From assembly GCA_030431525.1 (NCBI GenBank), contig JAUIJC010000001.1, positions 5,901 through 69,900 of the forward strand: a DNA stretch of 64,000 nt, in the 5' to 3' direction. Origin of the DNA: Bacteroidia bacterium (lineage in GTDB: Bacteria; Bacteroidota; Bacteroidia; Cytophagales; JAAEPT01). Below, one piece after another: positions 6,631 to 37,923 of this stretch (position 1 is the stretch's first letter; each line of letters starts with the position of its first letter). The position numbers and the translations under genes are program-made. The notes beneath the pieces were generated by a model. The model was not told the origin of the DNA and did not search any database. It worked only from the letters and a program-made list of their open reading frames with translations.

Positions 6631-6730
6631 ATAGGATTTCATCCTATCCTGACATATTTCGCCCTTACAGGGCTGTGACGTGGTAGCCCTGTAAGGGCGA
6701 AATCCGTTAGCGTAGGGTAAAACCCTACGT
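6631..6730. repeat. composite intergenic palindromic element, copy A
   Basis: Small hairpin ATAGGAtttcaTCCTAT at 6631-6647, a 19-bp-stem hairpin ATTTCGCCCTTACAGGGCT/AGCCCTGTAAGGGCGAAAT at 6656-6703 with loop gtgacgtggt, and a third hairpin CGTAGGGtaaaaCCCTACG at 6711-6729. Confidence 0.8.
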
Positions 6731-10125: not shown

Positions 10126-10222
10126 ATTGTACCATGGTTTGTACCATGGATTTCATCCATGGCTAACATATTTCGCCCTTACAGGGCTATGACCTGAAAG
10201 CCCTGTAAGGGCGAAATATGTC
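10126..10222. repeat. composite intergenic palindromic element, copy B
   Basis: Tandem gtaccatgg x2, hairpin CCATGGAtttcaTCCATGG at 10143-10161, and the same large hairpin at 10167-10221 (ACATATTTCGCCCTTACAGGGCT...AGCCCTGTAAGGGCGAAATATGT) with loop atgacctgaa. Confidence 0.8.
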
Positions 10223-10260
10223 AACGATGGTCATTAGCCCGTCGAACTCAACCAAGACTG

Positions 10261-13212: not shown

Positions 13213-13313
13213 GACGATGGGCTTTACGCCCATCGCTATCATATTTCGCCCTTACAGGGCTGTGACGTGGTAGCCCTGTAAGGGCGAAATATGTTAGCAT
13301 AGGACAACCTCCT
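13213..13313. repeat. composite intergenic palindromic element, copy C
   Basis: Hairpin CGATGGGCtttaCGCCCATCG at 13215-13234, a large hairpin at 13240-13293 identical to copy A including the loop, and hairpin CATAGGAcaaccTCCTATG at 13299-13317. Confidence 0.8.
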
Positions 13314-13375
13314 ATGTCTTCGTTAATTGCGACGATTGTGAAAAATGCGACGAACAAAATGTTACAATTATCCCC

Positions 13376-22824: not shown

Positions 22825-23766
22825 CTATTTCACTTCCCAAGCCTTAATGGTTCGGTCATCACCCGTAGAAATCAGCGCGTTTTCAAAGGTGCTCCAAAGC
22901 ACGCTGTTAACGGAGTTTGCATGAGCATCCTCGTGCTTGGGCTTACTGATATTGAGTAGCAACTCTAATTCGTTGGTTTCCCACACCTTCACAGACTTAT
23001 CCATACTTCCTGTGGCAAAACTGCTTCCATCTGGACTGAAGGAGATGCTGTAAATGGCGTAGTTGTGTGCAGGAATTCGCTTCACCATGGCATAGTCCTT
23101 TTCCACATCCCAAAGATTTAGATGGGCATCACGAGAACCTGAAATCAAGTATTTTCCATCGGGCGTATAGCGCAAAACCGTCACCGAAAAATCAGCTTGG
23201 TGACCTTCGCAAGATTGCTTTTCCTCAAAGCTGTCCAAATCAAAAATGCGAACCGTTCCATCCCCGCAACCCAAGGCAAATTCACGGCGCTCCAATTGGA
23301 AATCCATGGAACGAAGCCGTTTTTCCGACACCCGCTTTGCCTTAATCAAACTGAAATCTTCGAGGGACCAGACGGAAAACGAGCCATCCCCAGAAAGAAC
23401 AAAGAAACAGTCCTTCTCCTCCCAATACTGAATGTCAAAAATGACCATCTGGTGAAACTGAATCAGCTTCACCTCCTTTTTCTGGGCCAAATCAATGACA
23501 TGAACCCCGCCATTGAAATTTCCGACCAACAATAGATTCCTTTGGGGAATGTACTTGATGGCAAAGGCCTTCATCGGCAACTTGGCCACCGCACGACTGG
23601 ATTTTGGATTCGTCAAATCCCACTCAACAATCAGGTTGTCATTGCTTCCCGAAAAGAAAAGATGAGGCTCCGCCCCCTGTTCAAGGGTATAAATTGACCC
23701 TTCATGCCCATCAAACTGCTTGATTTTCTTCGCCTTGGGATAATAGAGTTTCCGCACCTTTGTCAT
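22825..23766 (-). CDS. WD40 repeat protein
   Basis: 313-aa ORF with repeated ...GS.D..v.vWd WD-like units (SGSNDNLIVEWD, SGSRDAHLNLWD, TGSMDKSVKVWE, TGDDRTIKAWE). Confidence 0.75.
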   Translation of the reverse strand: MTKVRKLYYPKAKKIKQFDGHEGSIYTLEQGAEPHLFFSGSNDNLIVEWDLTNPKSSRAVAKLPMKAFAIKYIPQRNLLLVGNFNGGVHVIDLAQKKEVKLIQFHQMVIFDIQYWEEKDCFFVLSGDGSFSVWSLEDFSLIKAKRVSEKRLRSMDFQLERREFALGCGDGTVRIFDLDSFEEKQSCEGHQADFSVTVLRYTPDGKYLISGSRDAHLNLWDVEKDYAMVKRIPAHNYAIYSISFSPDGSSFATGSMDKSVKVWETNELELLLNISKPKHEDAHANSVNSVLWSTFENALISTGDDRTIKAWEVK

Positions 23767-24003: not shown

Positions 24004-24564
24004 TTACGTCCTATCCACCTTACTTATCGGCACATCAACCCATCGTGATACTTCCACCGCCAAACCCTCTATTTTCTTATAATCGGTACTTTCATGAATT
24101 AATACCGATTTCCTCTTTGTACTAAACTTAAAATATACTCGATGCAATAATTCTGTTGATGAATAAGTCGTTACAGCCCTCGCACCAACGGTCTTTTGCT
24201 TTGTCACTTTTCCACTGGCCAAAAGCACTCTATTTGGATTCCCCACAACCTCTGAAGTTGAAAAAATAGGGATACCAAATACTCCTGTAACCGTTTTCAA
24301 GACAACCCCTTTTACTGGGGTGTAGAATAACTTCAACTTGGTTGTATTGAAAAACTTAAACGTCGTGCCGAGAAAAAATAAAATACTAAACACCAAAAAA
24401 ATGAGATCATCCATGGTCACAAGGACCATGAATAAAGACATTGGCCAAAACAGAAGTCCAAGTAAAACTCTTGACCAAACCTTATCAATGACCCAAAAAC
24501 TTATACCTTTCTTGTTTTGTATTCCCATAATTAAACAACCCCACCCAAAATATGGGCGGGGCAT
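24004..24564 (-). CDS. 2-TM membrane protein with C-terminal beta-rich domain (possibly bacterial PH-like)
   Basis: Two N-terminal hydrophobic helices then a ~110-aa soluble domain. Lies 9 bp downstream of the giant AAA gene. Alternative start at 24528. Confidence 0.45.
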   Translation of the reverse strand: MPRPYFGWGCLIMGIQNKKGISFWVIDKVWSRVLLGLLFWPMSLFMVLVTMDDLIFLVFSILFFLGTTFKFFNTTKLKLFYTPVKGVVLKTVTGVFGIPIFSTSEVVGNPNRVLLASGKVTKQKTVGARAVTTYSSTELLHRVYFKFSTKRKSVLIHESTDYKKIEGLAVEVSRWVDVPISKVDRT

Positions 24565-24573
24565 ATCAAATCA

Positions 24574-27500
24574 TTAATCAACTTCCTGACCGTACACCAC
24601 CTTTTTTGGCTTCCAAACCACTTCAAGCTCCTCCAAGGCCTTTGACTTCAATAGAATATCTCGGTCCAAGAACTTGTTGTAAGCCATCTGTGCGGACCAC
24701 GTGCAGGCGCTGTTTGGCTCCAAACCTTCATCGAAACTCAAATCGAGCTGGTGAATGTTCTCCCCGAACTCATCGCAGAATTCCACGGTACCCGAGAAGC
24801 CCTGCAAGGCTTTGTCCGTCTTGTTTTCAAAAGCGAACTCATAGGTGATAAAGCCCATATTATTCTCCTCGGAAAAACCTTTTTCGGTAACGGTTACGGC
24901 AATTTGGGTGCGCAAGGCCTCCAATTTCGTTTCCTCTTCTTGAAGGGCCTTTTGCACCAAAAACTTGCGCTCTTCAGCTTCCTTTAGGCGTTTTTCCTGC
25001 ACCTCCTGCTCATGATTGATGCGCTTGTCCTGCAACTCCTTTTGGCGGATAATCTCAGAAGTGATGCGCTCTTGGTTATCTCCCAATCGCTTGAGCACCT
25101 CCAATAATTCAGGAGCCGGAGCGGATGGCGCCTGTTCCACCTTCACCTCAACAGGCAACGGTTTTGGCTCCTCTTTCTTGACAACCTCAGGAAGCTGTTT
25201 TGGTTTGTCGGCCAAGTTCTTAGCGATGGCGCCAAGCCCTTGGGAGAGCTCTTCCAACTGAATCAAGACCTGCCCCATCTCATTGCCTGCACCCAAGCTG
25301 TTGAGCTTATTGTTTCGGACAAAAGTGTCTTTGATGTCAGCCCAACGTTGCTTTTCCTCGTCGGTAATCCAACCCACCATTTCTTTGAACTTGAGCAGGT
25401 TGGCCTCGGCACCTGTGGTCAAGGTTTGGGACTCGCCCTCGTAATGAGACATGATTAACTCATCGAGCTCCTTGTCGTTCATCACAGGAAGCACCTTCTC
25501 GACAATCTTGTTCATGTTCCGGTAAGAGCCCTGTAACTTGAATGGAGGCTCGGTACGATAGGCGTCGTTTTGGCTCGCCGATTTGATGTATTCAAGGTTC
25601 ACCCTCAAAATCACATCACGAACGGTGAGCATTTTTTTCAACACATTGACATACTCGTTGATTTCCTCTACCGAGTGATTCGCCTCGAACTCAATGCCGT
25701 CTTGGCTTCCCGTTTCGGCAATCTTAATCAAGCCATACAAATCAGACTTGCTCTTGCCTGACAGCTTGTTCAACACAGGGTTTGAGGTCAGGCTGTTCTC
25801 CAAATAACTCAGTTTGAACACATCAGCGCTGTCGCCAATGATGTCACCCAAGTTGTAGATGTCGGCACGGTTGGCCAACATGTCCGGAATCTGGAACTTG
25901 TCACCGCTCTCCGTGTACGGGTTGCCCGCCATGACCACAGCCACCTTTCGCCCACGGAAATCATAGGTTTTCGGACGGCCTTTGTACACACCCTCAATCT
26001 TCCGTTGGCCATCACAAAGCGAGATGAATTTCTGCAAGAACTCAGGGTGACAGTGTTGGATATCGTCAAGGTAAATCATGACGTTGTCCCCCATCTCAAA
26101 GGCAAGGTTCAACTTCTTGAGCTCTTCCTTGGCTCCGGCGTTATTCGCCGAAGAAGGGTCCACGCTGGTCACTTCATGGCCCAAAGCCGGACCGTTAATC
26201 TTCATGAAGACAATGCCCAAACGGTTGGCCACGTACTCCATCAAGGTGGTTTTACCGTATCCCGGAGGGGAAATCAGTAGCAACAAACCCATCTGGTCGG
26301 TTCGCTTGTTCTCGCCGGCCGTGCCCATCTGCTTGGCCAAGTTGGCGCCAATCAATGGCAAATAAAGTTTGTCAATCAGCTTGTTTCGCACAAAGGAGCT
26401 CATCACACGAGGCTTGAACTCGTTGAGCTTCATGTTGTCCTCAAACTCCTTAATGCACGTCTTTTTGGCTTCAAGGAAGGCCTCATAACGAGGCACATGA
26501 TTGAGGGCATATTGGCTCAGCTTCTCGGGGAAGGCATAGAAATCCAAGGCATATTGCTGGCTATCCAAAAGCTTATGTGACCCTTGAAGTCCATCCAACA
26601 CACGCGTTGTCTCCAAATGATGAAGCTCTTTTGGCTGGCCAGTCTCCAACAGCAACAGGGCCGTTTCATCAATGTAGGCCTCGGCAGATTCATGGTCACG
26701 GCTTGAATCAAAGGCGCGCAACCACTGACGCAACAGACCAAACTGCCCTTCAAAATTGCCTTCCAGACGATTGAGTGACTCCTCAAAAGCTGGCTTTACG
26801 TGCTGGTCTTGCAGGAAGCTCAGGAAATCATCGTGGAACAATCCCGCCTTGCCCATGGTCACAAATTCCGTTGCGCCTTGGGTCAATTCCTCAAAGAGAT
26901 AGGCGGAAGAATCCTGAACGTTTGAGGTATCAAATAAGGAAGAAGCATTGGCAAAATCATTAATGGCCTCTGCCAATTCAGCTTTCAACCCCTCGAACTC
27001 CTTACTGTTTGGAAATGCCTGCAAAACAAGGCCTGCTCCCTGAACTTGCTTCTCCAACTCAGCCTTTCGCTCATCCTCGCCATACAACCAAAAGGCTTTG
27101 GCCAAGGAGCGAATCGCTGGACTATATTTTAACAACTTGGCCTCAATGGTAATTTCCACCAAAGCACCAAGAATAATGGCTGTGTCATGGTCATGGACAC
27201 CCTTTACGTAGCCCTCGTTATAGCGAACCGCCATAAACTTCTGGACCACGGCCACCAATTCCTTTTGAGTAAGGTTATGAAGTTGCTCCAAATTGGGCAC
27301 CTCTCCTTCTCCAGCGTGCTCCAGCACTTGATAAGCCAAGTATTCGGCGCGATAGACTTGGTCATTTTCAGACACCAAACTTTGCTCCCAAAGCGCCTTG
27401 TCGCTTACCAAGGCCTCTTCGGTCACTTGCTCAAAGAAGTTGGTTCCCGCCAAATGGTAAAATAGCCCGCCATCACGATTCACCATCGAAAGCGCTGGCG

Positions 27501-30093
27501 TTTGGGTATTCACCAAGAATTTGAAGTTGCCGAAGCTGATGATGTTGTCCCCATCCAAAAAGAGCTCCTGCTTGTCCTTGAGCTGGCGCAGGGCATCCTC
27601 CTTGATGGTTTTCAAACGGGACTGCAAATCATCCGCCTTCACGGAATCCTCCAAGGCCACCAATTCTTTGATGATGCCACGCACCTTGTCAATCATCAAA
27701 TCGGAAGCGAAATAACCGTTGATTTCGCTGACGCTTTTCAGGCTTTCCGCCTTGGATTTGGCAGACTTCAAGATGCGAATGGCCGACTGCTGAAGGACAT
27801 TGGTCCGCTTGCTACGGGCTTCCGCCAATTGGACTTTCTTGCTCTCAAAAGCGCTGTAGATTTCCTCGCGCTGGGTGGCAATCTTGTCCAAGAAATCATC
27901 GAACTCGGCAAACTTCCCTTCCAACTCCTCCAACTGCACCATGAGCTTGGTGAGGTATTCCTCACACTTTTCTGGCTTGTCGCAGAGGTCCAAGAAGTTG
28001 ACCACGCTTTGCCCAATCAGTTTCAACTGGGCGTTGAATTCCGCCTTTCCTTCGACACCCGCCAGCTCCTTGCGCTTGTTTTTCAGTCGCGCACGAATCT
28101 GGTTGAACGAGGAATAGATTTCGGAAATGCTGTCGATGATTTGTGTGGTTTTGGTCGCATCCTCAATCTTGAGGTTGCCCACAATCTCAATCAACATTTC
28201 CAGCTCCTTGGCGGTCTGGTTGATGTTTTCCTCCACCTTGTTGGCATCCACCACCTTGGTGAGCCCTTCGATGGAGCCGTCAATCTCCCCTACTTTGGTG
28301 CGGTAAGGCGCCAAGGCCTCATCCTTGGTCAAGAACTTGACACAGCCCTCCGACAATTCATTGCCCAGCCCTTCGAGCTTTTCCTCATAGGATTCCACCA
28401 ACTCGGTATCCACATAGCGAAGCTCCTTGAGAGAAATAACTTCACCTCGAAGTCCACGCAAGCGCGAGAGGTAGCCAACAAACTCATCAATATGCTTGGG
28501 CACCTGACGACTGATTTCCGCCATCAAAGCATCCGCATCGGCAGTAACATTCGCCACGGCCTCGGCTGTGCTTCGACGAAGGCGCACCACTTTCTCGAAC
28601 TCATCAATGGCCGAAGAAGCGGACTGCTTGATTTCGCCCAATGGCTCAGACAACTGATAGGCATCTGGCTCATTAATCCAGTAATAGGCATCAAGAATGT
28701 CAGTGGACTTCTTCATCAAGTCCAGATACAGTCCTTGATAGCCGTCATCCTTTCCGAGCAAGCCCAAAATCTCATGGCACTCGGCCATGGCTTTTACGAT
28801 GTCCCTGTTGCCAATTTTATAGAGCAGGGAATCATCTTCCGTTCCGAAATCATAATCGGCATCGACAAATGGCGTTTGCCAAATCTGGATGGCATGGGTT
28901 TTCTTAGGCTCCTGATCCGCCTTGAAATAGCACATCTCTCCATTGCCAAAAATGGAGAAACCATGACAAGTCAACGGATTTTCAACGCTCTGATTAATCA
29001 GGTTGTAAGAGAGCATGAGGTAAAGCCCCTGCTCCCGATTGTAGAACACATAGGCGTAATCCTCACCGTTTGGCGAGGAAATCCGCTGTTCAAAAAGCAT
29101 ATCCTTCAACTGGATATCGAACAGCTTGTATTCTCCCGTTTGGAGATAATACCCATTCGGGAAAATCAAACCGTGGTCCTGTGGGAGCAATACACAAGAA
29201 TCCGCAATGGCGTCAATGCGCTGGGCCTCCTGCAACTTCTCGTTATAAACGATATAGCGAAACTCATTCTCCTGATACGGCTTTACCTTCAAGAGAATCA
29301 AGTTGCCGACGATGGCAAAATGGATTTCGGCATCATCCAAGGTTTGGTCCTTGTTGGCCACAGGCTCGGAGAAAATGCCTTTGCCTGTCTTGGTATTGTC
29401 CTCAACCTTGATGGTCAAATCCCCGCCAATGGTCTCCACAAAAATCCTGTCGGCAATGGAGATATGAGGGTGCGCCCCTTCCCTGTGCATATCGCGGGAA
29501 GTGCGTTTCCACTCAAATTCATGCTGACGTGGGAAATCATATTCGTGCTCGCTCCGCCCGTCAATGTATGAAAGCCCACCCTCAGTCATTAACCACTTGA
29601 AGACCTTAAGGTCGGAAACAGATTTCCCCACTTGGAAAACCATATACAAGTGGGCTCCGCGAACGGCAAACTTTACGAAACGGGCTTCCTTGTAATAGCG
29701 GTAAAGATTTTTGAAATCATCCAAAAAGGTCTCGTCCTCCAACACGGAAAGATCCAACGGATGAAAGCTCTGCTCCCTGTATTCAAAAACGCTGAACACA
29801 TCGGCCAATCGAATCTCATTCCTCAGCCCGATTTGGACGTTATAGCCAAAAATGAAGTGCCCACCTACGGGCACCATGTCCCAAGGCACGCAATTGTTCT
29901 CCGTGGTCACCCGATCCGTCCCAAGAAGCTGAGACTCGATGGAACCAAACACCTCCTTTCGGGAAGTGTTCAATTCGTTCAGGCGTTGGCGCAACTCATC
30001 GCCGTGTTTATTCAGGCGGGATTTCAATACCTCGTAGGTACCGCCTTCAAGTTGAGTTGGAGTTTCTATATGTTGAGTTTCGTTGGTGTTCAT
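24574..30093 (-). CDS. giant multidomain AAA+ ATPase (~1840 aa) with extensive coiled coils
   Basis: Walker A ISPPGYGKTTL, Walker B MIYLDDIQ and an AAA_5/MoxR-Lon-like core, with an N-terminal beta-rich region and >600 aa of coiled coil. ORF extends to 30168, but those 25 codons are encoded by the repeat element. The MNTNETQ ATG at 30093 is preferred. Confidence 0.7.
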   Translation of the reverse strand: MNTNETQHIETPTQLEGGTYEVLKSRLNKHGDELRQRLNELNTSRKEVFGSIESQLLGTDRVTTENNCVPWDMVPVGGHFIFGYNVQIGLRNEIRLADVFSVFEYREQSFHPLDLSVLEDETFLDDFKNLYRYYKEARFVKFAVRGAHLYMVFQVGKSVSDLKVFKWLMTEGGLSYIDGRSEHEYDFPRQHEFEWKRTSRDMHREGAHPHISIADRIFVETIGGDLTIKVEDNTKTGKGIFSEPVANKDQTLDDAEIHFAIVGNLILLKVKPYQENEFRYIVYNEKLQEAQRIDAIADSCVLLPQDHGLIFPNGYYLQTGEYKLFDIQLKDMLFEQRISSPNGEDYAYVFYNREQGLYLMLSYNLINQSVENPLTCHGFSIFGNGEMCYFKADQEPKKTHAIQIWQTPFVDADYDFGTEDDSLLYKIGNRDIVKAMAECHEILGLLGKDDGYQGLYLDLMKKSTDILDAYYWINEPDAYQLSEPLGEIKQSASSAIDEFEKVVRLRRSTAEAVANVTADADALMAEISRQVPKHIDEFVGYLSRLRGLRGEVISLKELRYVDTELVESYEEKLEGLGNELSEGCVKFLTKDEALAPYRTKVGEIDGSIEGLTKVVDANKVEENINQTAKELEMLIEIVGNLKIEDATKTTQIIDSISEIYSSFNQIRARLKNKRKELAGVEGKAEFNAQLKLIGQSVVNFLDLCDKPEKCEEYLTKLMVQLEELEGKFAEFDDFLDKIATQREEIYSAFESKKVQLAEARSKRTNVLQQSAIRILKSAKSKAESLKSVSEINGYFASDLMIDKVRGIIKELVALEDSVKADDLQSRLKTIKEDALRQLKDKQELFLDGDNIISFGNFKFLVNTQTPALSMVNRDGGLFYHLAGTNFFEQVTEEALVSDKALWEQSLVSENDQVYRAEYLAYQVLEHAGEGEVPNLEQLHNLTQKELVAVVQKFMAVRYNEGYVKGVHDHDTAIILGALVEITIEAKLLKYSPAIRSLAKAFWLYGEDERKAELEKQVQGAGLVLQAFPNSKEFEGLKAELAEAINDFANASSLFDTSNVQDSSAYLFEELTQGATEFVTMGKAGLFHDDFLSFLQDQHVKPAFEESLNRLEGNFEGQFGLLRQWLRAFDSSRDHESAEAYIDETALLLLETGQPKELHHLETTRVLDGLQGSHKLLDSQQYALDFYAFPEKLSQYALNHVPRYEAFLEAKKTCIKEFEDNMKLNEFKPRVMSSFVRNKLIDKLYLPLIGANLAKQMGTAGENKRTDQMGLLLLISPPGYGKTTLMEYVANRLGIVFMKINGPALGHEVTSVDPSSANNAGAKEELKKLNLAFEMGDNVMIYLDDIQHCHPEFLQKFISLCDGQRKIEGVYKGRPKTYDFRGRKVAVVMAGNPYTESGDKFQIPDMLANRADIYNLGDIIGDSADVFKLSYLENSLTSNPVLNKLSGKSKSDLYGLIKIAETGSQDGIEFEANHSVEEINEYVNVLKKMLTVRDVILRVNLEYIKSASQNDAYRTEPPFKLQGSYRNMNKIVEKVLPVMNDKELDELIMSHYEGESQTLTTGAEANLLKFKEMVGWITDEEKQRWADIKDTFVRNNKLNSLGAGNEMGQVLIQLEELSQGLGAIAKNLADKPKQLPEVVKKEEPKPLPVEVKVEQAPSAPAPELLEVLKRLGDNQERITSEIIRQKELQDKRINHEQEVQEKRLKEAEERKFLVQKALQEEETKLEALRTQIAVTVTEKGFSEENNMGFITYEFAFENKTDKALQGFSGTVEFCDEFGENIHQLDLSFDEGLEPNSACTWSAQMAYNKFLDRDILLKSKALEELEVVWKPKKVVYGQEVD

Positions 30094-30118
30094 AGTATTC
30101 AAGTATTTTTCATCTGAA

Positions 30119-30224
30119 CCCCTCTCTGTCATTCTGACGAAGGAAGAATCTGATAAAAAGAAAAACAATGTTGTCAGCCAGTTCCTTCGCTAACGCTCAG
30201 GATGACAGCCTGTAGTTCAGACCA
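30119..30224. repeat. ~100-bp direct repeat, copy 1 (flanks GIY-YIG gene)
   Basis: cccctctctgtcattctgacgaaggaagaatctg...gttccttcgctaacgctcaggatgacagcctgtagttcagacca. It is internally an imperfect inverted repeat and aligns to copy 2 along its length. Confidence 0.75.
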
Positions 30225-30242
30225 CTTTGTTTGACAAAGCTA

Positions 30243-30548
30243 TTACTGCCCTATTTCCTCATTCAAAAAATCCCATCGGGGATTAAACTCGTTGATCAAC
30301 GCCTCTTTCTTTCGTCTCACCCAACCTTTGATTTCCTTTTCTCTGGCGATGGCATCATTGACATATTGAAAGGTTTCCCAATAAATCAGGTTGTAGCAGA
30401 AGTACTTCCCTGCAAAAGATTTTTTTGACTCCATGTTGTCGGCTAAGTGTTCCTCCATTCGTCTTCTCAAGTCATTGGTCACTCCTGTATAAAGGACTGT
30501 TTTCTTTGGGTTCGTGGTGATGTAGACGAAATAACAATGCTTGTTCAT
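30243..30548 (-). CDS. GIY-YIG nuclease family protein (UPF0213/YhbQ-like)
   Basis: CYFVYITTNPKKTVLYTGVTNDLRRRMEEH carries the GIY-(10-11)-YTG motif plus an Arg and Glu in the right spacing. 101 aa. Confidence 0.8.
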   Translation of the reverse strand: MNKHCYFVYITTNPKKTVLYTGVTNDLRRRMEEHLADNMESKKSFAGKYFCYNLIYWETFQYVNDAIAREKEIKGWVRRKKEALINEFNPRWDFLNEEIGQ

Positions 30549-30597
30549 TGTTGAAAAAATTTTCGTTTTGAGACTCTTTTAAACTCCACTTAGCAAA

Positions 30598-30691
30598 CTC
30601 CCTCCTGTCCTTCTGACGAAGGAAGAATCTGGCAAAGATTTTCAATCAGTTCCTTCATTACACTCAGGATAACAGCCCAGATTTTAGACCA
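30598..30691. repeat. ~100-bp direct repeat, copy 2 (flanks GIY-YIG gene)
   Basis: ctccctcctgtccttctgacgaaggaagaatctg...gttccttcattacactcaggataacagcccagattttagacca. Same orientation as copy 1, ~80% identity by eye with one ~11-bp indel. Confidence 0.75.
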
Positions 30692-30881
30692 TAGAACCAG
30701 AACCCTTTAACTCAAAGACAAGAAATAGAATGACCATTAGGTAAATGAGAATTCCAGTAATGATATAGACCACCATTTTAGAATCCTTCTTTGCGTAATA
30801 CCCGAAAGTAAGGCAGTGAAATACAGTAGAACTTAACTCTCCAAGGGTCAAAACCACTTCCAAAACTAATTCTAACACCAC
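30684..30881 (-). CDS. possible small hydrophobic protein (65 aa)
   Basis: ORF with two hydrophobic segments. Lies between the flotillin terminator and repeat copy 2. Weak call. Confidence 0.2.
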   Translation of the reverse strand: MVLELVLEVVLTLGELSSTVFHCLTFGYYAKKDSKMVVYIITGILIYLMVILFLVFELKGSGSMV

Positions 30882-30902
30882 CGAGCTATTGGGGAAAGAC
30901 CT

Positions 30903-30931
30903 TTAAAAAAAGGGCAAGTTTCCCTGCCCTT
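30903..30931 (-). terminator. intrinsic terminator after flotillin gene
   Basis: On the minus strand, AGGGCAgggaaacTTGCCCT followed by TTTTTTT, 25 bp past the stop codon. Confidence 0.55.
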
Positions 30932-30955
30932 TTCTCATCATCACAAATCAAACGA

Positions 30956-33082
30956 TTAAAGCAATCCTAGGCTTCCAACCGTTTTGTCGGCGACTCCCAT
31001 GACGTTAGCGATGTTAGCGAGGCGACCGATGGAGGCCTGCATGTCGCTATCGTTGGTGTAGTCGGTTGACATTTTATTGAGCAAGTTGGCTACGCTGAGG
31101 TTGCGAACATCCTCGGTGTTCATGCCGAACTGATCCACAAACTTGTGGAGGTTTTCCTTGAACGAGGAACCGTCCGAAGTGTCGAACAAAGCGTCACGCA
31201 CTTGCGAGAGCGACTTCGAGTTGTCCATAAGTCCCTCGATTTGCTTGCCTTTGCCGATGGCTCCAGTGATGCGGTCGAAGAACTGCTGTTCGCCACCCAC
31301 GATGTCGATTTTGGCCGATTTGAGGGCCTCTGCCAACACGCTTGCTTGAGCGGAAGCGACTTTCTCCTGAATGGAGATTTGCGCCAACTCGATTTTGGTG
31401 TCCTTCTCCAAACGAAGCTTGAACTCTTCGTGGTCGCGACCAACACCATCCAATTTCTGCATGGCATTCGCCTTTTCCTCGATACCCTTCGCTTCGGCGA
31501 GGTACTTCTCGGAAGCGATTTTGGCTTCCACCAAACCTTTTTTCTCTTCGGCTTCGGCTTTGGCGTCGATGCCTTTTGCTTCGGCAAGCGCTTTCTTCTC
31601 CAAGATAGATGCCTCTGCAGCACCTTCCTTTTCGAGTGCGGCAGCCTTGGCTTCCATTACTTGTGCTTCAGCCAATCCGCTTGCAGCGGCCTGTTTCGCT
31701 TCAGCTTCTGCCAAGATTTTAATGGCTTCTGCTTTCTTATCGGCGGCAAGCTTTTCAGCCTCAGCCTCAATTTGCAATTGCTTGGCCTTGAATTCAGCAG
31801 ATACTTTCTGTGCCTCAGCTTCCTTCGTCTGACGGAGCAATGCCTCTTGTGCATGCATTTCTGCCTCAATCAATTTGGCCTGCTTCTCACGGTCGGCCTC
31901 AGCCACCAAGCGGGTTTCCTTGATTTTCTCCTCTTCCTCAACTACTGCCTTCTCGACAATCACACGCTCACGGATGACGTCTTGAATTTGCTTGCGCTCC
32001 TCTTCAAGAGCTTTCTCCTTTTCAATGTTCGCCAACTCAACAATGCGCTCACGCTCGGTTTGCTCCAATTGCTGGTCTTTTTGAACGCGCTCAGTCTCAA
32101 TGGCCAAGGTGCGCTCCTTGTTCTTCTCAGCAACCAACACCTGACGGCGTTTGTTTTCCTCAGCTACCTCGATTTCCTCTTGAGTGGAAATTCGAGCCCT
32201 TTCAGATTTCAGACGCTCTTCCTCACGGACCTTTTGCGTTTCTGCACGCTCACGAGCACGAATGGATTCAACCTCACGGAGTTGCTTCTCCTCCTTTTCA
32301 GCCATTTGGCGTTCAAGCTCCAAGATGGTCTCACGAGCCTCAACATCTTGCTTCTTGATGGTTTGGGTCTTTTGGTTCTGCACCAAATTGGCCTCCATCT
32401 TTTCCTTGGCTGTCAGCGTAATAATCTTCTTGATACCCTCAGCATCCAAGATGTTGTTCTCATCAAGGCTTGTGATTGGCGTCTGCTCCAAGGAGTCAAT
32501 AGCGCAGTCATCCAACACATAACCATTCAAGTCTGTACCGATAATCTGAAGAATCTCAGACTTGAAGGCATCACGAGAGTTATACAACTCCACGAAATCA
32601 AAGTGTTTACCAACAGTTTTGAGCGCCTCAGAGAACTTCGCGTCAAACAGGGCAACCAATGATTGTTGCTCGGAAGCACGCGCACAACCGATTGACTGAG
32701 CCACCTTGATAACATCCTGCTCCGTCTGGTTGACACGAACAAAGAAGTTCACCTGAATGTCCGCCCTCATATTGTCTTTACAAATGAGACCTTCCTTTCC
32801 CTCTCGGGAGATGGTAATTTTCTTGACAGTGATGTCCATCTTTTCCAGCTTGTGAATCACTGGAACAACCAACATCCCTGAGAAGGATACCTTTGAACCT
32901 CCCATTCCGGTCTTCACCAAGGCCTGACCTTGGGAGGCTTTATTGTACATCTTCACGAAGAAGGCCACCAAACCGATGAGGAAAATGACTCCTCCCACGG
33001 TAATCGCCATCGCCGCTTGACTAAACAACGAACTTTGTAACAACATAAAATGTGTGTGATAAATATTAAACAGGTATTGCAC
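30956..33082 (-). CDS. flotillin/SPFH (Band 7) family protein, YqiK-like
   Basis: N-terminal TM anchor, an SPFH domain (ISREGKEGLICKDNMRADIQVNFFVRV...) and a long A/E/K-rich coiled-coil with AEAKGI(D/E)xKA tandem repeats. Start may be 33046 or 33010. Confidence 0.8.
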   Translation of the reverse strand: MQYLFNIYHTHFMLLQSSLFSQAAMAITVGGVIFLIGLVAFFVKMYNKASQGQALVKTGMGGSKVSFSGMLVVPVIHKLEKMDITVKKITISREGKEGLICKDNMRADIQVNFFVRVNQTEQDVIKVAQSIGCARASEQQSLVALFDAKFSEALKTVGKHFDFVELYNSRDAFKSEILQIIGTDLNGYVLDDCAIDSLEQTPITSLDENNILDAEGIKKIITLTAKEKMEANLVQNQKTQTIKKQDVEARETILELERQMAEKEEKQLREVESIRARERAETQKVREEERLKSERARISTQEEIEVAEENKRRQVLVAEKNKERTLAIETERVQKDQQLEQTERERIVELANIEKEKALEEERKQIQDVIRERVIVEKAVVEEEEKIKETRLVAEADREKQAKLIEAEMHAQEALLRQTKEAEAQKVSAEFKAKQLQIEAEAEKLAADKKAEAIKILAEAEAKQAAASGLAEAQVMEAKAAALEKEGAAEASILEKKALAEAKGIDAKAEAEEKKGLVEAKIASEKYLAEAKGIEEKANAMQKLDGVGRDHEEFKLRLEKDTKIELAQISIQEKVASAQASVLAEALKSAKIDIVGGEQQFFDRITGAIGKGKQIEGLMDNSKSLSQVRDALFDTSDGSSFKENLHKFVDQFGMNTEDVRNLSVANLLNKMSTDYTNDSDMQASIGRLANIANVMGVADKTVGSLGLL

Positions 33083-33088: not shown

Positions 33089-33742
33089 TTAGATGCCTTG
33101 ATAAGGCTCCACAATATAACATTGGAGCGCCTCATTAAATTCTATTACCAATCCCTGTTCTCCTTTTTGCAAGGACTTGCCTTCGGGAGATTTCGCGTTG
33201 ATAATATAACTTCCTTTAGCATCGATGGTCACTTGCCCAATACGTGAACTGCTTAGGGGCAAGCTTGCAACGCAAATCTTCCCAATTGGATTAAACTTGT
33301 CCTCTTCGCTTTCCTCCATTTTTCGGAACAATACCACAAAGGGCATTGTGCAAAATTTGGCGATAAACAGGCTTACAAAAAAGTATCCTGACAATGCCAA
33401 AATCCCGATTAAGATGGAATCAATGCCCAAATAATGGTTTCCTACTATCGCCATAAACCAAAAAGGCAAAGCGAGAAAAGTCATGAAAACCATGAAAGGC
33501 ACCTTTCCAAGATTAAAGAAGGAAAGTACAGACAAATAGAAAGGAACATCCGTTCCCGCCTCCACACTTAAATCCACCTCAATCTCCACATCGGCCTCGC
33601 CGTCCGCTTCCACATCAAAATCAAGGAAGCCCATATCAAGGGCGCCGAGCATTACAGTAAACCAATAAATTACAACCAGTAGAATCATACCAGTTGGCAG
33701 GACATTTACTCCTGAAAATGCGGCGTGGAGAAGTTCGTTCAT
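33089..33742 (-). CDS. NfeD/YqiJ-like membrane protein
   Basis: N-terminal TM helices plus a C-terminal OB-fold-like segment (IGKICVASLPL...GQVTIDAKGSYIINAKS...GEQGLVIEF). It is immediately upstream of the flotillin gene, the conserved NfeD-SPFH arrangement. Confidence 0.6.
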   Translation of the reverse strand: MNELLHAAFSGVNVLPTGMILLVVIYWFTVMLGALDMGFLDFDVEADGEADVEIEVDLSVEAGTDVPFYLSVLSFFNLGKVPFMVFMTFLALPFWFMAIVGNHYLGIDSILIGILALSGYFFVSLFIAKFCTMPFVVLFRKMEESEEDKFNPIGKICVASLPLSSSRIGQVTIDAKGSYIINAKSPEGKSLQKGEQGLVIEFNEALQCYIVEPYQGI

Positions 33743-33849: not shown

Positions 33850-34575
33850 TTAGATGCTGGAGTCAGCAGCTTTACCACCATTCATTTTAGCTTTCAAAGC
33901 AGCCAACGCATCAGATGCAGCGGCTTGAGGCTCATCCTTCAACGCAGAATCGATTTCCTCGTCAACAGAACGGTTCTCATTAGCGATGTCGCCGTAGGCT
34001 TCAGCCAAAGACTCCTCCTCGGCAACTTTGTCCTTCATGCGCTCCAACATGGAGATCGTGCTTGAAGAATCGATTTGAGCCATCTGCTTGTTGAGGTTCT
34101 TGGTGGTTGAAGCCACCTTCTGACGAGCCTTCAAGGTCTTGAGCTCGTTCTCCCACTTGCTGATGTTATGGCGAAGGGTGCGAACGTTACCTTCCAATTT
34201 CTCTAACTGCTTGTCGAAGTGAGCAACCTCTTTGGACAAACGAGCAGTGTGTTCGTCACACTCTTGCTTTTTCAACAAGGCGTCACCGGCCAAACGGTCG
34301 GCATCAGCAGCAGTCATCCCTCCGGCCTCAGCCTTCTGAAGGATTTGCATCGCCTTGCGCTCGTAGTCAGCACCTTTGTTTTTATAGCTGCTCAAATCGT
34401 TTTTTGAGCGGATAGCCAACGCTTTTACTTCAGCCAAGGCGTGAAGCGCCTTGTCCAAGTCAGCTTTCATATCACGGATGCCCTGTTCGGTCATCTTGAT
34501 TGGGTTCTCTAGGGCGTCAATCGCAGAGTGTGCTTCAGCCTGACCCACTTTGAATATTCTTTTGAAAATGTTCAT
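33850..34575 (-). CDS. pspA: PspA/IM30 (Vipp1) family protein
   Basis: MNIFKRIFKVGQAEAHSAIDALENPIKMTEQGIRDMKADLDKA... is a canonical PspA/IM30 N-terminus. The protein is predicted entirely coiled coil. Confidence 0.85.
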   Translation of the reverse strand: MNIFKRIFKVGQAEAHSAIDALENPIKMTEQGIRDMKADLDKALHALAEVKALAIRSKNDLSSYKNKGADYERKAMQILQKAEAGGMTAADADRLAGDALLKKQECDEHTARLSKEVAHFDKQLEKLEGNVRTLRHNISKWENELKTLKARQKVASTTKNLNKQMAQIDSSSTISMLERMKDKVAEEESLAEAYGDIANENRSVDEEIDSALKDEPQAAASDALAALKAKMNGGKAADSSI

Positions 34576-34604: not shown

Positions 34605-35009
34605 TTAGGCAGTCACTTGTGAAAATTTAATCATCTCGTCGGCGTACTCGCTCAACAAGAGGCTCAGGGAATTGATGGAACCTTCCAACTCATTAAGGTC
34701 AAGGTTTTCCAATTGGAGAGTGTCCCTGAAGATGACTTTACGACCAGAATCGTCCAATACAAAGGCGCCGTGGATAATATCCCTGTTCTTCTGAAGAAGC
34801 TGTTTCAATACTGACGCGTCTGCATCGTCGCTCAAATCAAAAAGGTACTGCTCAATGATCAACAATGGATCTGCACAACCCAACACTAAGTTGGAAATAC
34901 CTTCATCTTCTTTGCTGACGACTAATACTTCGTCATTTTCATCTTCCAAAACGATATTGTACTCCAATTCGAGCACGTAATCCTTAACCTTTGAAAAGTT
35001 ATCTTTCAT
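34605..35009 (-). CDS. PspA-associated small acidic protein (possibly YjfI/DUF2170-like)
   Basis: 134-aa acidic ORF directly upstream of the pspA-like gene, mirroring the E. coli yjfI-yjfJ arrangement. No sequence verification. Confidence 0.35.
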   Translation of the reverse strand: MKDNFSKVKDYVLELEYNIVLEDENDEVLVVSKEDEGISNLVLGCADPLLIIEQYLFDLSDDADASVLKQLLQKNRDIIHGAFVLDDSGRKVIFRDTLQLENLDLNELEGSINSLSLLLSEYADEMIKFSQVTA

Positions 35010-35269: not shown

Positions 35270-36028
35270 ATGGCCCTTATCGGGAAAAACATACGAAAGA
35301 TTAGAAGCGTAAAGCAACTCAGCCAACAAGCCTTTGCAGACCTTTTTGGGGTCTCCAGAGCCTCTGTAGGCTCTTATGAGGAAGGTCGGGCTGATCCGAA
35401 AATCGACACCATCATTGCCATTGCAAATTATTTTAGCATAACTTTGGAAGAGTTCCTCACCAAGGAACTAACGGTGAACGATCTCTACCACTTTGATGTC
35501 TTTAAGGCGAAACTGGGGAAGGAGAAAAAGCCAAACACGAAGAAGCCTAACGAGAATGAAATGCCTCTTGTGACGGCTAAATTGCGCGACGAATACATCA
35601 AGAAACACCAGAACAAGGATTTCCTAATGGATTTGCCGAGCATTATGCTCCCCAAAAAGAGCAATGCGCTAAACAGGGCTTTTGAGGCAAACAAAGATTC
35701 AACGGCAGGAAATTTCAAGAAGGGCGACCTTTTGATCAGTCAGGCTATTGACTCCGAAAAGATGTTAGTCGGCCAAGTTTATGTAGTCCATACAGATGCC
35801 CGCCTCCTCTTCAGGAGGCTTTTATCCAAAACGGACGAAAACTTGGAGTTCTCCCCTGGCGATGAAAAGTCCAGAGAAATCTTGGACCAAAAAGACATCA
35901 TTGAGGCTTGGGAGGTGATTGGAAAATACACCACTGAGCTTAGGGCCAGAAAATCCCTTGAGGAAAGGGTGGCCTTGTTGGAAGAAAAGGTGAGTAAGCT
36001 GGAATTGGCTTCTACAATGAACCTATAA
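35270..36028 (+). CDS. XRE-family HTH regulator with LexA/cI-like C-terminal domain
   Basis: N-terminal IRKIRSVKQLSQQAFADLFGVSRASVGSYEEGRADPKIDTIIAIANYF (HTH_XRE). C-terminal GDLLIS...VGQVYVVHT...LLFRRL resembles the S24/LexA fold. Divergent from the psp operon. Confidence 0.65.
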   Translation: MALIGKNIRKIRSVKQLSQQAFADLFGVSRASVGSYEEGRADPKIDTIIAIANYFSITLEEFLTKELTVNDLYHFDVFKAKLGKEKKPNTKKPNENEMPLVTAKLRDEYIKKHQNKDFLMDLPSIMLPKKSNALNRAFEANKDSTAGNFKKGDLLISQAIDSEKMLVGQVYVVHTDARLLFRRLLSKTDENLEFSPGDEKSREILDQKDIIEAWEVIGKYTTELRARKSLEERVALLEEKVSKLELASTMNL

Positions 36029-36034: not shown

Positions 36035-36433
36035 TTACTCCGTCACCATTCCCCGCTCAATGGACTGAAAGGAATGTTCTGTTGATTCTAACTTCTCAGC
36101 CAGATAATCATAGGCTTCCTGCAAACGCATATCCTCACCACAAGTGAAGATATCAACAGCTGCGTAGCCATGCTCAGGCCAGGTATGAATGGAAAGGTGA
36201 CTCTCCATCACGACCACTACTCCAGTCACTCCCATTGGGGAAAAAGGATGGAAAACGGACTTGATGACCGTGGCATTAGCAACCTCAGCTGCTTCCAAAA
36301 GAAAGGTTTCCAAACGCTCCAAATTATCGAGGGTTTGGACATTACAACCATGGAATTCAGCCAATAAATGACGCCCCAAAGGTTTAGGTAAAACGGGCAA
36401 TGACTTGTCTTTCTTGGGATTAAGTTTCGTCAT
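36035..36433 (-). CDS. speH: S-adenosylmethionine decarboxylase proenzyme (small class 1B, SpeH-type)
   Basis: GRHLLAEFHGC..., the self-cleavage site VVVMESHLSIHTWPE (E-S) and ...AVDIFTCG; 132 aa. Confidence 0.8.
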   Translation of the reverse strand: MTKLNPKKDKSLPVLPKPLGRHLLAEFHGCNVQTLDNLERLETFLLEAAEVANATVIKSVFHPFSPMGVTGVVVVMESHLSIHTWPEHGYAAVDIFTCGEDMRLQEAYDYLAEKLESTEHSFQSIERGMVTE

Positions 36434-36505
36434 TCAAGCAATTTACAAAGGAAGTGTGGCATTCTTTCTATATTTAAACTTTGGCAAACCAAAAATCTAC
36501 CATTC

Positions 36506-37060
36506 ATGGGACTATTTGATTTTTTCCGCGATAAAAAAGAGTCGGAAGACCATAAACCATCTGATCAACTAACCGTTTCTGACCTCAAAAAGGGCTACAT
36601 CATCGATTACTTCATGAAGTCTTGGGAAGTAAAGGCTTGTTATGAGTACGACTGGGGAAATAACTTTTTCTCTAAAGAATTTAAACTCGATGCTGGTGAT
36701 GAGGTGATTTACCTCAGCGTGGAAGAGGACGATGAAATCACGTTGGCGGTATCTCGTGGTGTGCCTTTGATGTCCATCGACAAAAACCTCAAGTACAACA
36801 TCATCGACCGCGACGAGCCAGGAATCCGTGAGATTGTGTACAAAGGCAAGGTCTTTTACTACAACGAATCAAGCCAAGGCATTCAGCGAGACTTGGATTA
36901 CTACAACGAACCTCACAAATTTGTGGCTTGGGAATACACGGACGAGGAGGAAAAAGAATTTATCTACATCTCTCGTTGGGGCGAAGAGGAAATCGAAGCC
37001 GCACATGGTGAGTATGTGGAAAACTATGAGTTCTCGAACATTCTACCTGTAAAACATTAA
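36506..37060 (+). CDS. hypothetical protein, possibly DUF4178
   Basis: LKKGYIIDYFMKSWEVKACYEYDWG...DEVIYLSVEEDDEITLAVSR resembles the DUF4178 pattern. Genomic context with DUF350-like, lipoprotein and AdoMetDC genes. Confidence 0.4.
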   Translation: MGLFDFFRDKKESEDHKPSDQLTVSDLKKGYIIDYFMKSWEVKACYEYDWGNNFFSKEFKLDAGDEVIYLSVEEDDEITLAVSRGVPLMSIDKNLKYNIIDRDEPGIREIVYKGKVFYYNESSQGIQRDLDYYNEPHKFVAWEYTDEEEKEFIYISRWGEEEIEAAHGEYVENYEFSNILPVKH

Positions 37061-37078
37061 CACAACCTTTTTAGGACC

Positions 37079-37828: not shown

Positions 37829-37923
37829 TTCCGTCATACCAACAAGAAAAGGTTCACATCATACAGGTGTGAACCTTTTTTTATACCTTCCGTTCTAACC
37901 TGAAGTTTTAACCTTACTGTTTT

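Follow-up and report, generated by a model that had tools for sequence, protein, structure and literature searches.

The window, a stretch of 64,000 nucleotides of Bacteroidia DNA, carries on its minus strand an operon-like run of genes for a CesT/Tir-like chaperone, PspA, a YqiJ-like protein, a flotillin and a giant AAA+ protein, with a divergent regulator gene beyond its head and a small open reading frame beyond its end (Table 1). The giant gene is real and encodes a soluble cytoplasmic ATPase. Its reading frame occupies positions 24574-30168 on the minus strand, and translation from the ATG at 30093 gives a product identical to the database protein P0001; since an alternative ATG at 30132 lies within a repeat copy, the longer reading is disfavoured. 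A hydrophobic-segment scan of the protein returned no TM-like segment, as compared to one in the flotillin and three in the YqiJ-like protein. A preliminary description had assigned the span 24004-30168 to an AAA+ protein of ~1840 aa with a single ATPase module and a downstream partner; the giant and its size hold, while the portion of the span given to the partner has to be removed.

Table 1. Position of genes, protein domains and other elements in the window (aa numbering refers to the giant ATPase).
Feature	Coordinates	Strand	Basis and remarks
186-aa ORF, two hydrophobic segments	24004..24564	-	begins 9 bp beyond the stop codon of the giant
Intrinsic-terminator-like hairpin	24538..24562	-	10 pairs, 7 G-C, T-rich tail; begins 11 bp after the giant's stop
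Giant AAA+ gene	24574..30093	-	1,839 aa plus stop codon; DUF3686/DUF7902 family
Clade-specific C-terminal extension: 68-residue helix aa 1661-1728, beta-sandwich aa 1731-1834	24592..25113	-	model
AAA+ lid and C-terminal helical domain, aa 1420-1630	25204..25836	-	model; candidate sensor-2 R1525 in QGSYR
AAA+ alpha/beta core, aa 1265-1419	25837..26301	-	motifs and model
Small beta element and globular helical domain, aa 867-1260	26314..27495	-	model secondary structure
Long-helix region, aa 423-842	27568..28827	-	helices of 20-58 residues in model; holds DUF7902
N-terminal beta-propeller, aa 55-406	28876..29931	-	all-strand blades in AlphaFold model; preceded by helix aa 17-49
Inserted GIY-YIG element with ~100-nt direct repeats	30118..30700	-	gene 30243-30548, PF01541 E = 1e-16
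Flotillin	30956..33082	-	SPFH/Band_7, N-terminal hydrophobic segment, long EA-rich helical region; start codon putative
YqiJ/short-NfeD-like, first gene of core triad	33089..33742	-	three TM-like segments
PspA/IM30 (ESCRT-III superfamily)	33850..34575	-	PF04012 E = 3e-43
CesT/Tir-like (YbjN) chaperone, first gene of operon	34605..35009	-	PF22550 E = 2e-53
XRE-type HTH regulator, divergent	35270..36028	+	HTH_3 E = 7e-11; weak S24-like C-terminal match, Peptidase_S24 E = 0.046

The flotillin, PspA and GIY-YIG neighbours named in the preliminary description are all present by their Pfam profiles. For the flotillin, the Band_7 match was obtained with residues 1-260 (E = 8.6e-13), the whole protein giving no Pfam match, and its homologues bear the annotation flotillin or SPFH. 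The YqiJ_N match of the adjoining protein is weak (E = 0.094, 13.4 bits versus a cut-off of 23), and the CesT/Tir-like and PspA genes form an adjacent dyad on one strand at the head of the operon. The flotillin and the giant gene are split by the inserted GIY-YIG gene, which is flanked by direct repeats that are 81% identical and widens the gap to ~860 bp versus a median of ~160 bp in relatives; this insertion lies outside the conserved system. A terminator-like hairpin is located 3' of the flotillin gene, and because both this hairpin and the GIY-YIG element intervene, co-transcription of flotillin and giant in the window is uncertain.

Pfam identifies the giant as a full-length member of the widespread DUF3686/DUF7902 family. 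The DUF3686 profile (PF12458) matches residues 33-471 with E = 2e-193 and 643 bits (cut-off 25), covering profile positions 1-448 of 448, and DUF7902 (PF25472) is found in the helical region at about residues 592-676 with 105 bits (cut-off 26). Homologues from 80 loci in the scanned genomes align colinearly with the window protein at 47-60% identity over ~1,620 residues, the Pseudomonas, Streptomyces, Deinococcus, Proteus and Vibrio homologues are 36-41% identical, and every listed homologue carries this set of Pfam matches in its precomputed annotation. Most family members stop near aa 1640-1660. Conservation among 84 sequences spans the whole 1,600 aa, beyond the ATPase alone, and ranges from 74-82% mean identity in the AAA+ module, the most conserved part, to 25-29% in residues 1001-1200, the least conserved stretch of the shared core. 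As the preliminary description had anticipated, database homologues bear the name "DNA repair ATPase", both in the Pfam description of DUF3686 and in NCBI product names. Since DUF3686 is not mentioned in the searched literature, we found no published evidence behind this label, which is unsupported; an experimental study of a DUF3686 ATPase itself was likewise not found in that literature.

AlphaFold models (whole-model mean pLDDT of 82 for the one that shows the propeller) were used to define the domain anatomy of the giant. The beta-rich N-terminal region proposed earlier takes the form of a beta-propeller, for which Foldseek matched propeller proteins of the WD40, Kelch, IFT-A and clathrin terminal domain types. 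The more than 600 aa of coiled coil thought to lie upstream of the ATPase are in fact long helices that extend over ~420 aa and give way to a globular region of mixed, mostly helical structure, and the supposed C-terminal coiled coil turns out to be a single helix leading into a confidently predicted beta-sandwich (block pLDDT 86-95 across aa 1670-1829). Homology to this C-terminal extension is confined to the three nearest relatives (L081-L083).

The giant contains one complete AAA+ module (Pfam AAA 32 bits, AAA_5 26 bits), and its motifs were located where they had been expected: Walker A as GYGKTT at 1278-1283, the Walker B residues DD at 1343-1344 within MIYLDDIQH (1339-1347) and NRADIYN at 1408-1414, the last including the candidate arginine finger R1409, with N1391 as sensor-1. 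Both Walker motifs as well as N1391, R1409, R1513 and R1525 are retained without exception across 84 sequences of ten phyla. Walker B is invariantly DD, not DE, and could confer slow hydrolysis or switch-like behaviour rather than the action of a processive motor. The loop at the pore-loop 1 site, after strand beta2, reads INGPALGHEVTSVDP; the whole family keeps its G, P, G, D and P unchanged, and because it contains no aromatic residue, threading of polypeptides is not supported. The model further displays, after helix alpha3 and ahead of the sensor-1 strand, a two-strand beta-hairpin (aa ~1365-1378). We rejected an assignment to the classical AAA clade (Vps4, p97, FtsH) on the grounds of this hairpin before sensor 1 and the lack of an aromatic pore loop, and in sequence the giant resembles p97 only along the P-loop stretch. 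In structure comparison the fold of the modelled module resembles RuvB, ClpA, NorQ, CbbQ and Lon. Identity to MoxR-type (NorQ, CbbQ) and Clp/Lon/RuvB-type modules is 13-20%, with scores hardly above those of other AAA+ clades, and the giant differs from these families in its DD Walker B and in a 1,260-residue N-terminal region that has no counterpart in MoxR, Clp, Lon or RuvB. MoxR systems moreover have a VWA-domain partner gene, which is absent from the window operon and from the called genes of the relatives' loci, and a protease partner was not detected in the giant or the window operon genes. RuvB models score below their cut-offs on the giant (RuvB_N 22.8 versus 27 bits; NCBIfam NF000868 22.9 versus 282 bits and TIGR00635 21.5 versus 299 bits) and were rejected.

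The preliminary description had proposed the small open reading frame downstream of the giant as a 2-TM partner. The 186-aa frame and its two hydrophobic segments exist, but the partnership is refuted: no homologue was found among 5.8 billion proteins, a search of 86 related loci returned 0 matches, and at an 87th locus a phospholipase D-family gene occupies the position downstream of the giant. The codon score of the frame is 0.04 (GC3 0.39) as compared to 0.30-0.61 for other scored genes and 0.15 for the small inserted GIY-YIG gene, and the terminator-like hairpin behind the giant covers its first 9 codons. It is an orphan and probably no functional partner. Genes downstream of the giant are variable housekeeping genes across relatives; the giant's true conserved partners, flotillin and the YqiJ-like protein, are encoded on its upstream side.

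We assessed this linkage at 68 loci from ten phyla with at least 3.2 kb of upstream flank. In 65 of the 68 loci the gene immediately preceding the giant, on its strand, encodes a flotillin; L027, L029 and L045 lack such an adjacent flotillin. At 63 of the 68 loci jackhmmer identified a YqiJ-like gene that also precedes the giant on its strand. The triad also appears in annotated Pseudomonas and Streptomyces records; in Deinococcus a gene pair of the same sizes precedes the giant, with neither gene named in the record. Copies of the giant also reside on large plasmids (pQBR103 and plasmids of Streptomyces and Deinococcus). The DUF3686 giant is the third component of a conserved module of YqiJ/short-NfeD, flotillin and giant ATPase. 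PspA, in contrast to flotillin with ~96%, is encoded in 27 of the 66 loci whose upstream flank measures 6 kb or more. It stands upstream with CesT in Bacteroidota and Pseudomonas, immediately downstream of the giant at two loci (L032, L079) and on the opposite strand at one (L019), and these at least three different arrangements suggest repeated selection for the pairing of PspA with the giant. In Bacteroidota, the window included, the CesT-PspA pair and the divergent HTH regulator are added to the core; the regulator was found at the same position in 24 loci, each of which also encodes CesT. In the window the module is embedded in a PspA envelope-stress operon.

An operon class comprising CesT/Tir, PspA, band-7/flotillin, YqiJ and AAA+ genes has been described computationally, and its abbreviated flotillin-YqiJ-AAA+ form is stated to be more widely distributed (Ravi et al., 2024; PMC11237479), in agreement with our locus survey. 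As the architecture is already published, the finding is less novel than the preliminary description assumed. For the ATPase, that study offers neither a structure model nor an analysis of motifs nor counts of linkage, and the window differs from the class in the repeat-flanked GIY-YIG element between flotillin and ATPase and in the C-terminal helix and beta-sandwich of the latter.

Taken together, these data point to the giant as most likely a cytoplasmic ATP-driven remodeller of flotillin/PspA assemblies, a reading to which we assign a probability of about 0.5 and which agrees with the membrane-associated remodelling machine suggested before, given the conserved YqiJ/NfeD, flotillin and PspA context. 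Because its gene adjoins that of flotillin in ten phyla, the giant probably remodels the flotillin scaffold. It would oligomerise through the AAA+ module, which has a full set of intersubunit catalytic residues, and the beta-propeller and long helical region might dock on flotillin assemblies at their cytoplasmic coiled-coil face. ATP would then be spent to assemble, disassemble or reorganise these assemblies at the stressed membrane, and PspA polymers, where PspA is present, may be remodelled likewise. The logic would be comparable to that of Vps4 acting on ESCRT-III or of FtsH inside HflK/C cages. FtsH-HflK/C is an AAA+ protease genetically and functionally coupled to an SPFH membrane scaffold, and the likeness consists in an ATPase coupled to an SPFH-family protein, here through gene linkage; FtsH, however, is a membrane-anchored member of the classical AAA clade with a protease domain, whereas the giant has neither TM segment nor protease domain, bears the hairpin before sensor 1 and shares with FtsH nothing beyond the generic AAA+ fold. 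With Vps4/CdvC it has in common an ATPase gene next to a gene of the ESCRT-III superfamily, which suggests ATP-driven polymer remodelling, but Vps4, a small AAA protein of the classical clade, possesses aromatic pore loops and an MIT domain, features that the giant lacks, and the PspA linkage of the giant is facultative. The same contextual inference was drawn by Ravi et al. (2024), and for B. subtilis a published study reports that an SPFH protein links PspA to the membrane (PMC8581546).

A bolder version, doubtful though conceivable, would make the DUF3686 ATPase the dedicated energy source of bacterial flotillin microdomains, a soluble ring ATPase that would put together, take apart or reshape SPFH cages and, where co-encoded, PspA/ESCRT-III polymers. 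If true, bacteria would possess an ATP-driven membrane-scaffold cycle analogous to Vps4-ESCRT-III, built from an AAA+ lineage without a close solved relative. An even stranger option, prompted by the invariant DD Walker B and the N-terminus of propeller plus helical array, is a coat-like lattice, gated by nucleotide, that would line flotillin domains on their cytoplasmic side. For the role of bacterial flotillins, and for the dismantling or reorganisation of SPFH and PspA assemblies in the absence of a Vps4, an unusually conserved ATPase of 1,600-1,900 residues tied to flotillin in ten phyla is an obvious candidate for the missing energy-consuming component.

In an alternative reading, the giant could primarily be an engine for disassembly or recycling of PspA, the bacterial ESCRT-III, and thus a Vps4 analogue for which flotillin is only the membrane platform. 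PspA shares the window operon with it, the three arrangements linking the two genes are independent, and ESCRT-like ATP-dependent remodelling has been proposed for PspA-AAA+ associations (PMC11237479); given that PspA is far less regularly linked than flotillin, that the module is not of the classical Vps4 clade and that Pfam detected no MIT-like domain in the giant, we consider this unlikely. Somewhat less likely still is a mainly structural role, in which propeller and long helical array would form a scaffold or coat reinforcing flotillin domains and the DD-type AAA+ module would serve as a slow nucleotide switch for assembly rather than as a motor. The invariant DD and the conservation outside the ATPase are in line with such a role, as is the appearance of the propeller-plus-solenoid coats IFT-A and clathrin among the top Foldseek matches of the N-terminal 1,200 aa, yet the TM-scores to coat proteins are very low (0.09-0.13), so that the match is essentially restricted to the propeller, and the invariance of arginine finger and sensor residues suggests that hydrolysis matters.

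If the giant served in anti-phage defence or another conflict as an NTPase on a membrane scaffold and spread horizontally, its plasmid copies would be explained, and the unusually high identity across phyla as well as the GIY-YIG element and a WD40 gene nearby in the window could be read in the same sense. PADLOC, however, gave for the giant only a marginal mad8 match (E = 0.0026) and nothing for the flotillin, YqiJ-like protein, CesT or 186-aa ORF, its PspA matches being coiled-coil noise; neither the WD40 gene nor the GIY-YIG insertion is conserved beside the giant, the downstream genes are housekeeping genes, and the conserved neighbours are membrane-scaffold rather than defence genes. Among the YqiJ/NfeD-like, flotillin, PspA and polyamine genes beside the giant there is neither a nuclease nor another typical defence effector. 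The defence-type NTPase of the preliminary description is accordingly very improbable. The least credible reading takes the database label literally and sees a DNA repair ATPase, for instance a RuvB-like motor on DNA. RuvB is the best Foldseek match of the AAA+ module (E = 2e-6) and RuvA is encoded downstream of the giant in two close relatives, but this adjacency is not conserved: neither the window nor L082 shows it, nor do the other downstream genes that were surveyed. Besides the RuvB models scoring below cut-off and the literature's silence on DUF3686, sequence similarity to RuvB is confined to the P-loop stretch, Pfam detected no DNA-binding or nuclease domain in the giant, and the conserved neighbours in ten phyla are membrane proteins.

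The practical value of the window is mostly corrective, as it exhibits a known operon class, an unsupported "DNA repair" label and a 2-TM partner that has to be dropped. Linkage counts, domain models and the motif map, in which DD replaces DE, provide experimental handles for tractable hosts such as Flavobacterium or P. aeruginosa, in the latter with bacE. At the P. aeruginosa locus L087 the gene order is DUF2170/CesT-like, PspA, a 213-aa protein, a 688-aa protein, the DUF3686 AAA+ protein and PLDc_2, and the P. aeruginosa family member P0277 (1,746 aa) combines DUF3686, DUF7902 and AAA. This order matches the biofilm-associated cluster bacABCDEF, and from gene order and domains rather than locus tags we infer that L087 is the PA14_16140-16200 locus, in which the giant would be BacE (PA14_16190/PA3728). 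Identities to the window protein of ~39-41% refer to other proteobacterial members. The six bac genes form one transcript by RT-PCR, and their products all rise together 6- to 13-fold in a bacA mutant (PMC10948618); short NfeD and the flotillin PaFlo3 have been assigned within the operon (PMC13086221), and the published phenotypes are those of bacA and bacB, not bacE. In Pseudomonas the sixth gene of the operon encodes a phospholipase D-family protein, and a sigma-54 promoter has been proposed; both are absent from the window, which carries the divergent XRE/S24-type regulator instead.

The gene of the giant DUF3686/DUF7902 AAA+ protein lies within a very long minus-strand reading frame that covers 24574-30168 when counted from the first possible TTG. 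A database protein of 1,839 residues (P0001) is identical to the window protein and has the ATG at 30093 as its start codon, at whose methionine the homolog alignments also begin. Since a further ATG at 30132 falls inside a repeat copy bordering an inserted GIY-YIG gene and the homologs align from 30093, we rejected a longer product and assigned the gene to 24574-30093. In Pfam, the N-terminus of the protein matches DUF3686 (PF12458, "ATPase involved in DNA repair") with E = 2e-193 and the helical region matches DUF7902; matches to AAA/AAA_5, at approximately residues 1271-1394, are weak. Two AlphaFold models computed from 36-sequence alignments (mean pLDDT 82 and 77) yield the domain order listed in the table. 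According to this order, the more than 600 residues of coiled coil given in the preliminary description were overstated, as the long helices amount to about 420 residues, and the supposed C-terminal coiled coil is modeled as one helix running into a beta-sandwich. No transmembrane-like segment was found in the protein. Three structure searches returned low-identity matches only and no solved close relative of the ATPase core or the propeller, and a PDB sequence search with the entire protein and with its C-terminal 610 residues gave nothing beyond P-loop similarity to p97/VCP.

Positions of features in the window (nucleotides) and in the giant AAA+ protein (aa)
Feature	Position	Strand	Basis or remark
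N-terminal helix	aa 17-49		AlphaFold
All-beta propeller	aa 55-406		AlphaFold
Long helices	aa 423-842		AlphaFold
Low-confidence linker	after the long helices		AlphaFold
Small beta element and globular helical domain	up to about aa 1260		AlphaFold
Single AAA+ core	aa 1265-1419		AlphaFold; beta-hairpin before sensor 1
Lid and helical C-terminal domain	up to about aa 1630		AlphaFold
Disordered linker	between lid/helical domain and aa 1661		AlphaFold
68-residue helix	aa 1661-1728		AlphaFold
Beta-sandwich	aa 1731-1834		AlphaFold; confident
WD40 beta-propeller protein	22825-23766	-	313 aa
186-aa ORF	24004-24564		two hydrophobic segments
Terminator-like hairpin	24562-24538		10 pairs (7 G-C), T-rich tail
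Walker B D1343-D1344	26062-26067	-	motif hhhhDD
GIY-YIG insertion with repeats	30118-30700	-	repeats 30118-30222 and 30596-30700
GIY-YIG gene	30243-30548	-	101 aa
Hairpin and T-run	30900-30935	-	read by eye
XRE-type HTH regulator	35270-36028	+	
Polyamine-linked module	36035-38826		
AdoMet decarboxylase	36035-36433	-	
DUF4178	36506-37060	+	
Putative lipoprotein	37079-37828	+	249 aa
DUF350 membrane protein	37924-38826	+	
78-nt repeat	6653-6730, 10167-10244, 13240-13317		three copies

The protein belongs to a large family that is conserved over its whole length. A protein search with the window sequence recovered at least 4,874 clusters at 90% identity, nearly all of them nameless or named "DNA repair ATPase", and a second search seeded with a Pseudomonas member recovered at least 5,870. 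When the propeller domain was searched exhaustively, 752 clusters at 50% identity were obtained; those among them that appear full-length measure 1,550-2,040 residues and carry the propeller at the N-terminus. A species-level genome scan confirmed at least 564 relatives, and the 80 loci retained from these (Bacteroidota, Planctomycetota, Verrucomicrobiota, Desulfobacterota, Clostridia, Kiritimatiellota and Omnitrophota) encode proteins with 47-60% identity to the window protein over about 1,620 residues. Members with 36-41% identity over the full length occur in Pseudomonas, Proteus, Vibrio, Halomonas, Streptomyces, Nonomuraea and Deinococcus. Most family members end near residue 1,640-1,660, and among the loci compared homologs of the extension of helix and beta-sandwich are confined to the three closest relatives. 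Other C-terminal extensions, giving total lengths of 1,750-1,980 residues, occur in many members of Planctomycetota, Desulfobacterota, Verrucomicrobiota and several further lineages (loci L012-L014, L017, L018, L020, L021, L024, L025, L029, L030, L032, L036, L038, L053, L062 and L080). They show no homology to the window extension, which suggests that lineage-specific C-terminal additions arose repeatedly in the family.

The ATPase motifs quoted in the preliminary description are present where they had been placed. In a motif alignment of 84 full-length family members from ten phyla, GYGKTT (1278-1283), D1343-D1344, N1391, R1409, R1513 and R1525 are invariant in all 84 sequences. They cover the Walker A and Walker B motifs and sensor 1, together with candidates for the arginine finger and sensor 2. 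This soluble AAA+ protein thus carries a complete set of catalytic motifs, which would imply an oligomer with intersubunit catalysis. Unusually, the Walker B motif reads hhhhDD (IYLDDIQH) rather than DE throughout the family, again without exception in the 84 sequences. A similar LIDDIQ motif is found in DnaA. The loop in which classical AAA unfoldases carry an aromatic pore residue lacks an aromatic residue in the giant protein. Together with the DD Walker B motif, this likewise unusual feature argues against simple polypeptide threading, and the two allow for a scaffold role in which the protein acts as a slow switch.

To characterize the genomic context, the window proteins were compared with 86 related loci using tblastn and jackhmmer. 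For flotillin, the count was limited to the 68 loci with at least 3.2 kb of upstream sequence: a homolog adjoins the giant gene upstream on the same strand in 64 of these, a 65th (L049) has flotillin upstream of a frameshifted giant gene, and L027, L029 and L045 lack it at this position. A homolog of the 217-aa YqiJ-like protein lies upstream on the same strand in 63 of those loci. The triad of YqiJ-like protein, flotillin and giant protein also appears in annotated Pseudomonas and Streptomyces records, and in a Deinococcus record two nameless genes of matching size precede the giant gene. The 708-aa window flotillin gave no match in Pfam and NCBIfam as an entire sequence or in a PDB sequence search; Band_7 matches the first 260 residues (E = 8.6e-13), and the N-terminus contains a hydrophobic segment. 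The giant gene is thus near-obligately linked to genes for a membrane-anchored flotillin and a YqiJ/NfeD-like protein, and both the giant protein and its membrane-stress gene context, as noted earlier, are real.

Linkage to PspA is repeated and independent: of 66 loci, 27 contain PspA, and its gene takes one of three positions, namely upstream of the giant gene together with a CesT/Tir-like gene (Bacteroidota and Pseudomonas), immediately downstream of it (the two Phycisphaerae-type loci L032 and L079), or on the opposite strand (L019). In 24 loci, the CesT-PspA pair comes with a divergent XRE-type HTH regulator. The C-terminus of the window regulator weakly resembles Peptidase_S24 (E = 0.046), as is also recorded for the homolog in L081, one of the nearest relatives; if this domain is real, the regulator could repress the operon and be controlled by cleavage, like LexA or CI. 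Next to the regulator lies a polyamine-linked module reminiscent of the second PspA context described by Ravi et al.; a 511-aa spermine-synthase protein, apparently missing from the window, occupies the corresponding position in L081 and L082. A gene similar to the DUF4178 gene of this module lies directly downstream of the giant gene in four Bacteroidota loci (L002, L006, L031 and L041), which is a second, independent link of the ATPase module to the polyamine/PspA gene set. The Pseudomonas fluorescens plasmid pQBR103 carries the triad in fusion with a YjfI-PspA-rhomboid-DUF2491-DUF350-DUF1190-glutathionylspermidine synthase cluster.

The preliminary description had further proposed a two-transmembrane partner encoded downstream. 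The 186-aa ORF indeed has two hydrophobic segments and starts 9 bp past the giant stop codon. It finds no match in any of the 86 related loci, however, and a search against 5.8 billion proteins returned the ORF itself only. Clustering of downstream ORFs showed that the gene following the giant gene is not conserved (DUF4178, PspA, RuvA, unrelated or opposite-strand genes), and it varies even among the three closest relatives, whose giant proteins have the C-terminal extension as well. The codon-usage score of the ORF is 0.04, barely exceeding its own off-frames. The other genes scored lie at 0.30-0.61, except for the small inserted GIY-YIG gene with a similarly low 0.15. The ORF has a GC3 of 0.39, compared with 0.46-0.63. 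The terminator-like hairpin begins 11 bp past the giant stop codon and covers the first nine codons of the ORF. As a partner of the giant protein, the ORF is neither conserved nor co-transcribed; it is either spurious or a lineage-specific orphan. Further downstream lies a WD40 gene, whose product gives a partial PADLOC match to HEAT-ARM_XIII (E = 2e-18) through the WD40 repeats only. WD40 and MscK-like genes were rejected as conserved neighbors of the giant gene, each occurring in 0 related loci.

An operon of the type seen in the window has been described computationally, with a phospholipase D gene added in some Proteobacteria and an abbreviated flotillin-YqiJ-AAA+ form being more widespread (Ravi et al., 2024; PMC11237479). 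In Pseudomonas aeruginosa, the locus of the 1,746-aa homolog P0277 (L087) has the order DUF2170, PspA, 213 aa, 688 aa, giant and PLDc_2 and thereby matches bacABCDEF; the assignment as the bac locus rests on gene order and domains, and the PLDc_2 (phospholipase D family) gene directly 3' of the giant gene (L087 13260-13952) would be bacF. The bac genes form one operon by RT-PCR, and a bacA mutant shows 6- to 13-fold increases in all bacABCDEF products (PMC10948618); BacC is a short NfeD and BacD the flotillin PaFlo3 (PMC13086221). In the searched literature, no paper mentions DUF3686, "DNA repair ATPase" and "flotillin" do not occur together, PA3728 (BacE) appears in mutation lists only, labeled "ATPase", and no study addressing the ATPase itself was found. 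The window locus is a further member of a computationally described family and operon class, and its giant protein carries a clade-specific C-terminal addition; it adds little to the published picture.

Of the functions suggested previously, a membrane-associated remodeling machine is the best-supported interpretation. We infer that the giant protein may oligomerize, dock through its propeller and helical region onto the cytoplasmic face of flotillin assemblies, and spend ATP to assemble, disassemble or reorganize flotillin (and PspA) structures during envelope stress, with a logic like that of Vps4 with ESCRT-III or FtsH with HflK/C. A PspA-specific analog of Vps4 is less likely, since the linkage to PspA is facultative. 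Apart from the database label, nothing supports a role as a DNA repair ATPase, and the proposed defense-type NTPase is backed neither by PADLOC nor by the gene context.

The spacing of the flotillin and giant genes in the window is unusual: the median gap in relatives is about 160 bp, and in the window a GIY-YIG gene bordered by direct repeats of roughly 100 nt (81% identical) widens it to about 860 bp. The flotillin stop codon is immediately followed by a terminator-like hairpin with a T-run (aaaagggcagggaaacttgccctttttttaaa), and the upstream operon may therefore end before the insertion and the giant gene. L039 (Leeuwenhoekiella, 9431-9661) likewise has a GIY-YIG match between the flotillin and giant genes, and L034 has one downstream of the giant gene. 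The degenerate 23-nt repeat core, allowing up to 3 mismatches, matched one of the two window copies and nothing elsewhere. Finally, a 78-nt repeat present in three copies holds a perfect palindrome (CGCCCTTACAGGGCT...AGCCCTGTAAGGGCG) and looks like a REP-like intergenic element unconnected to the giant gene.
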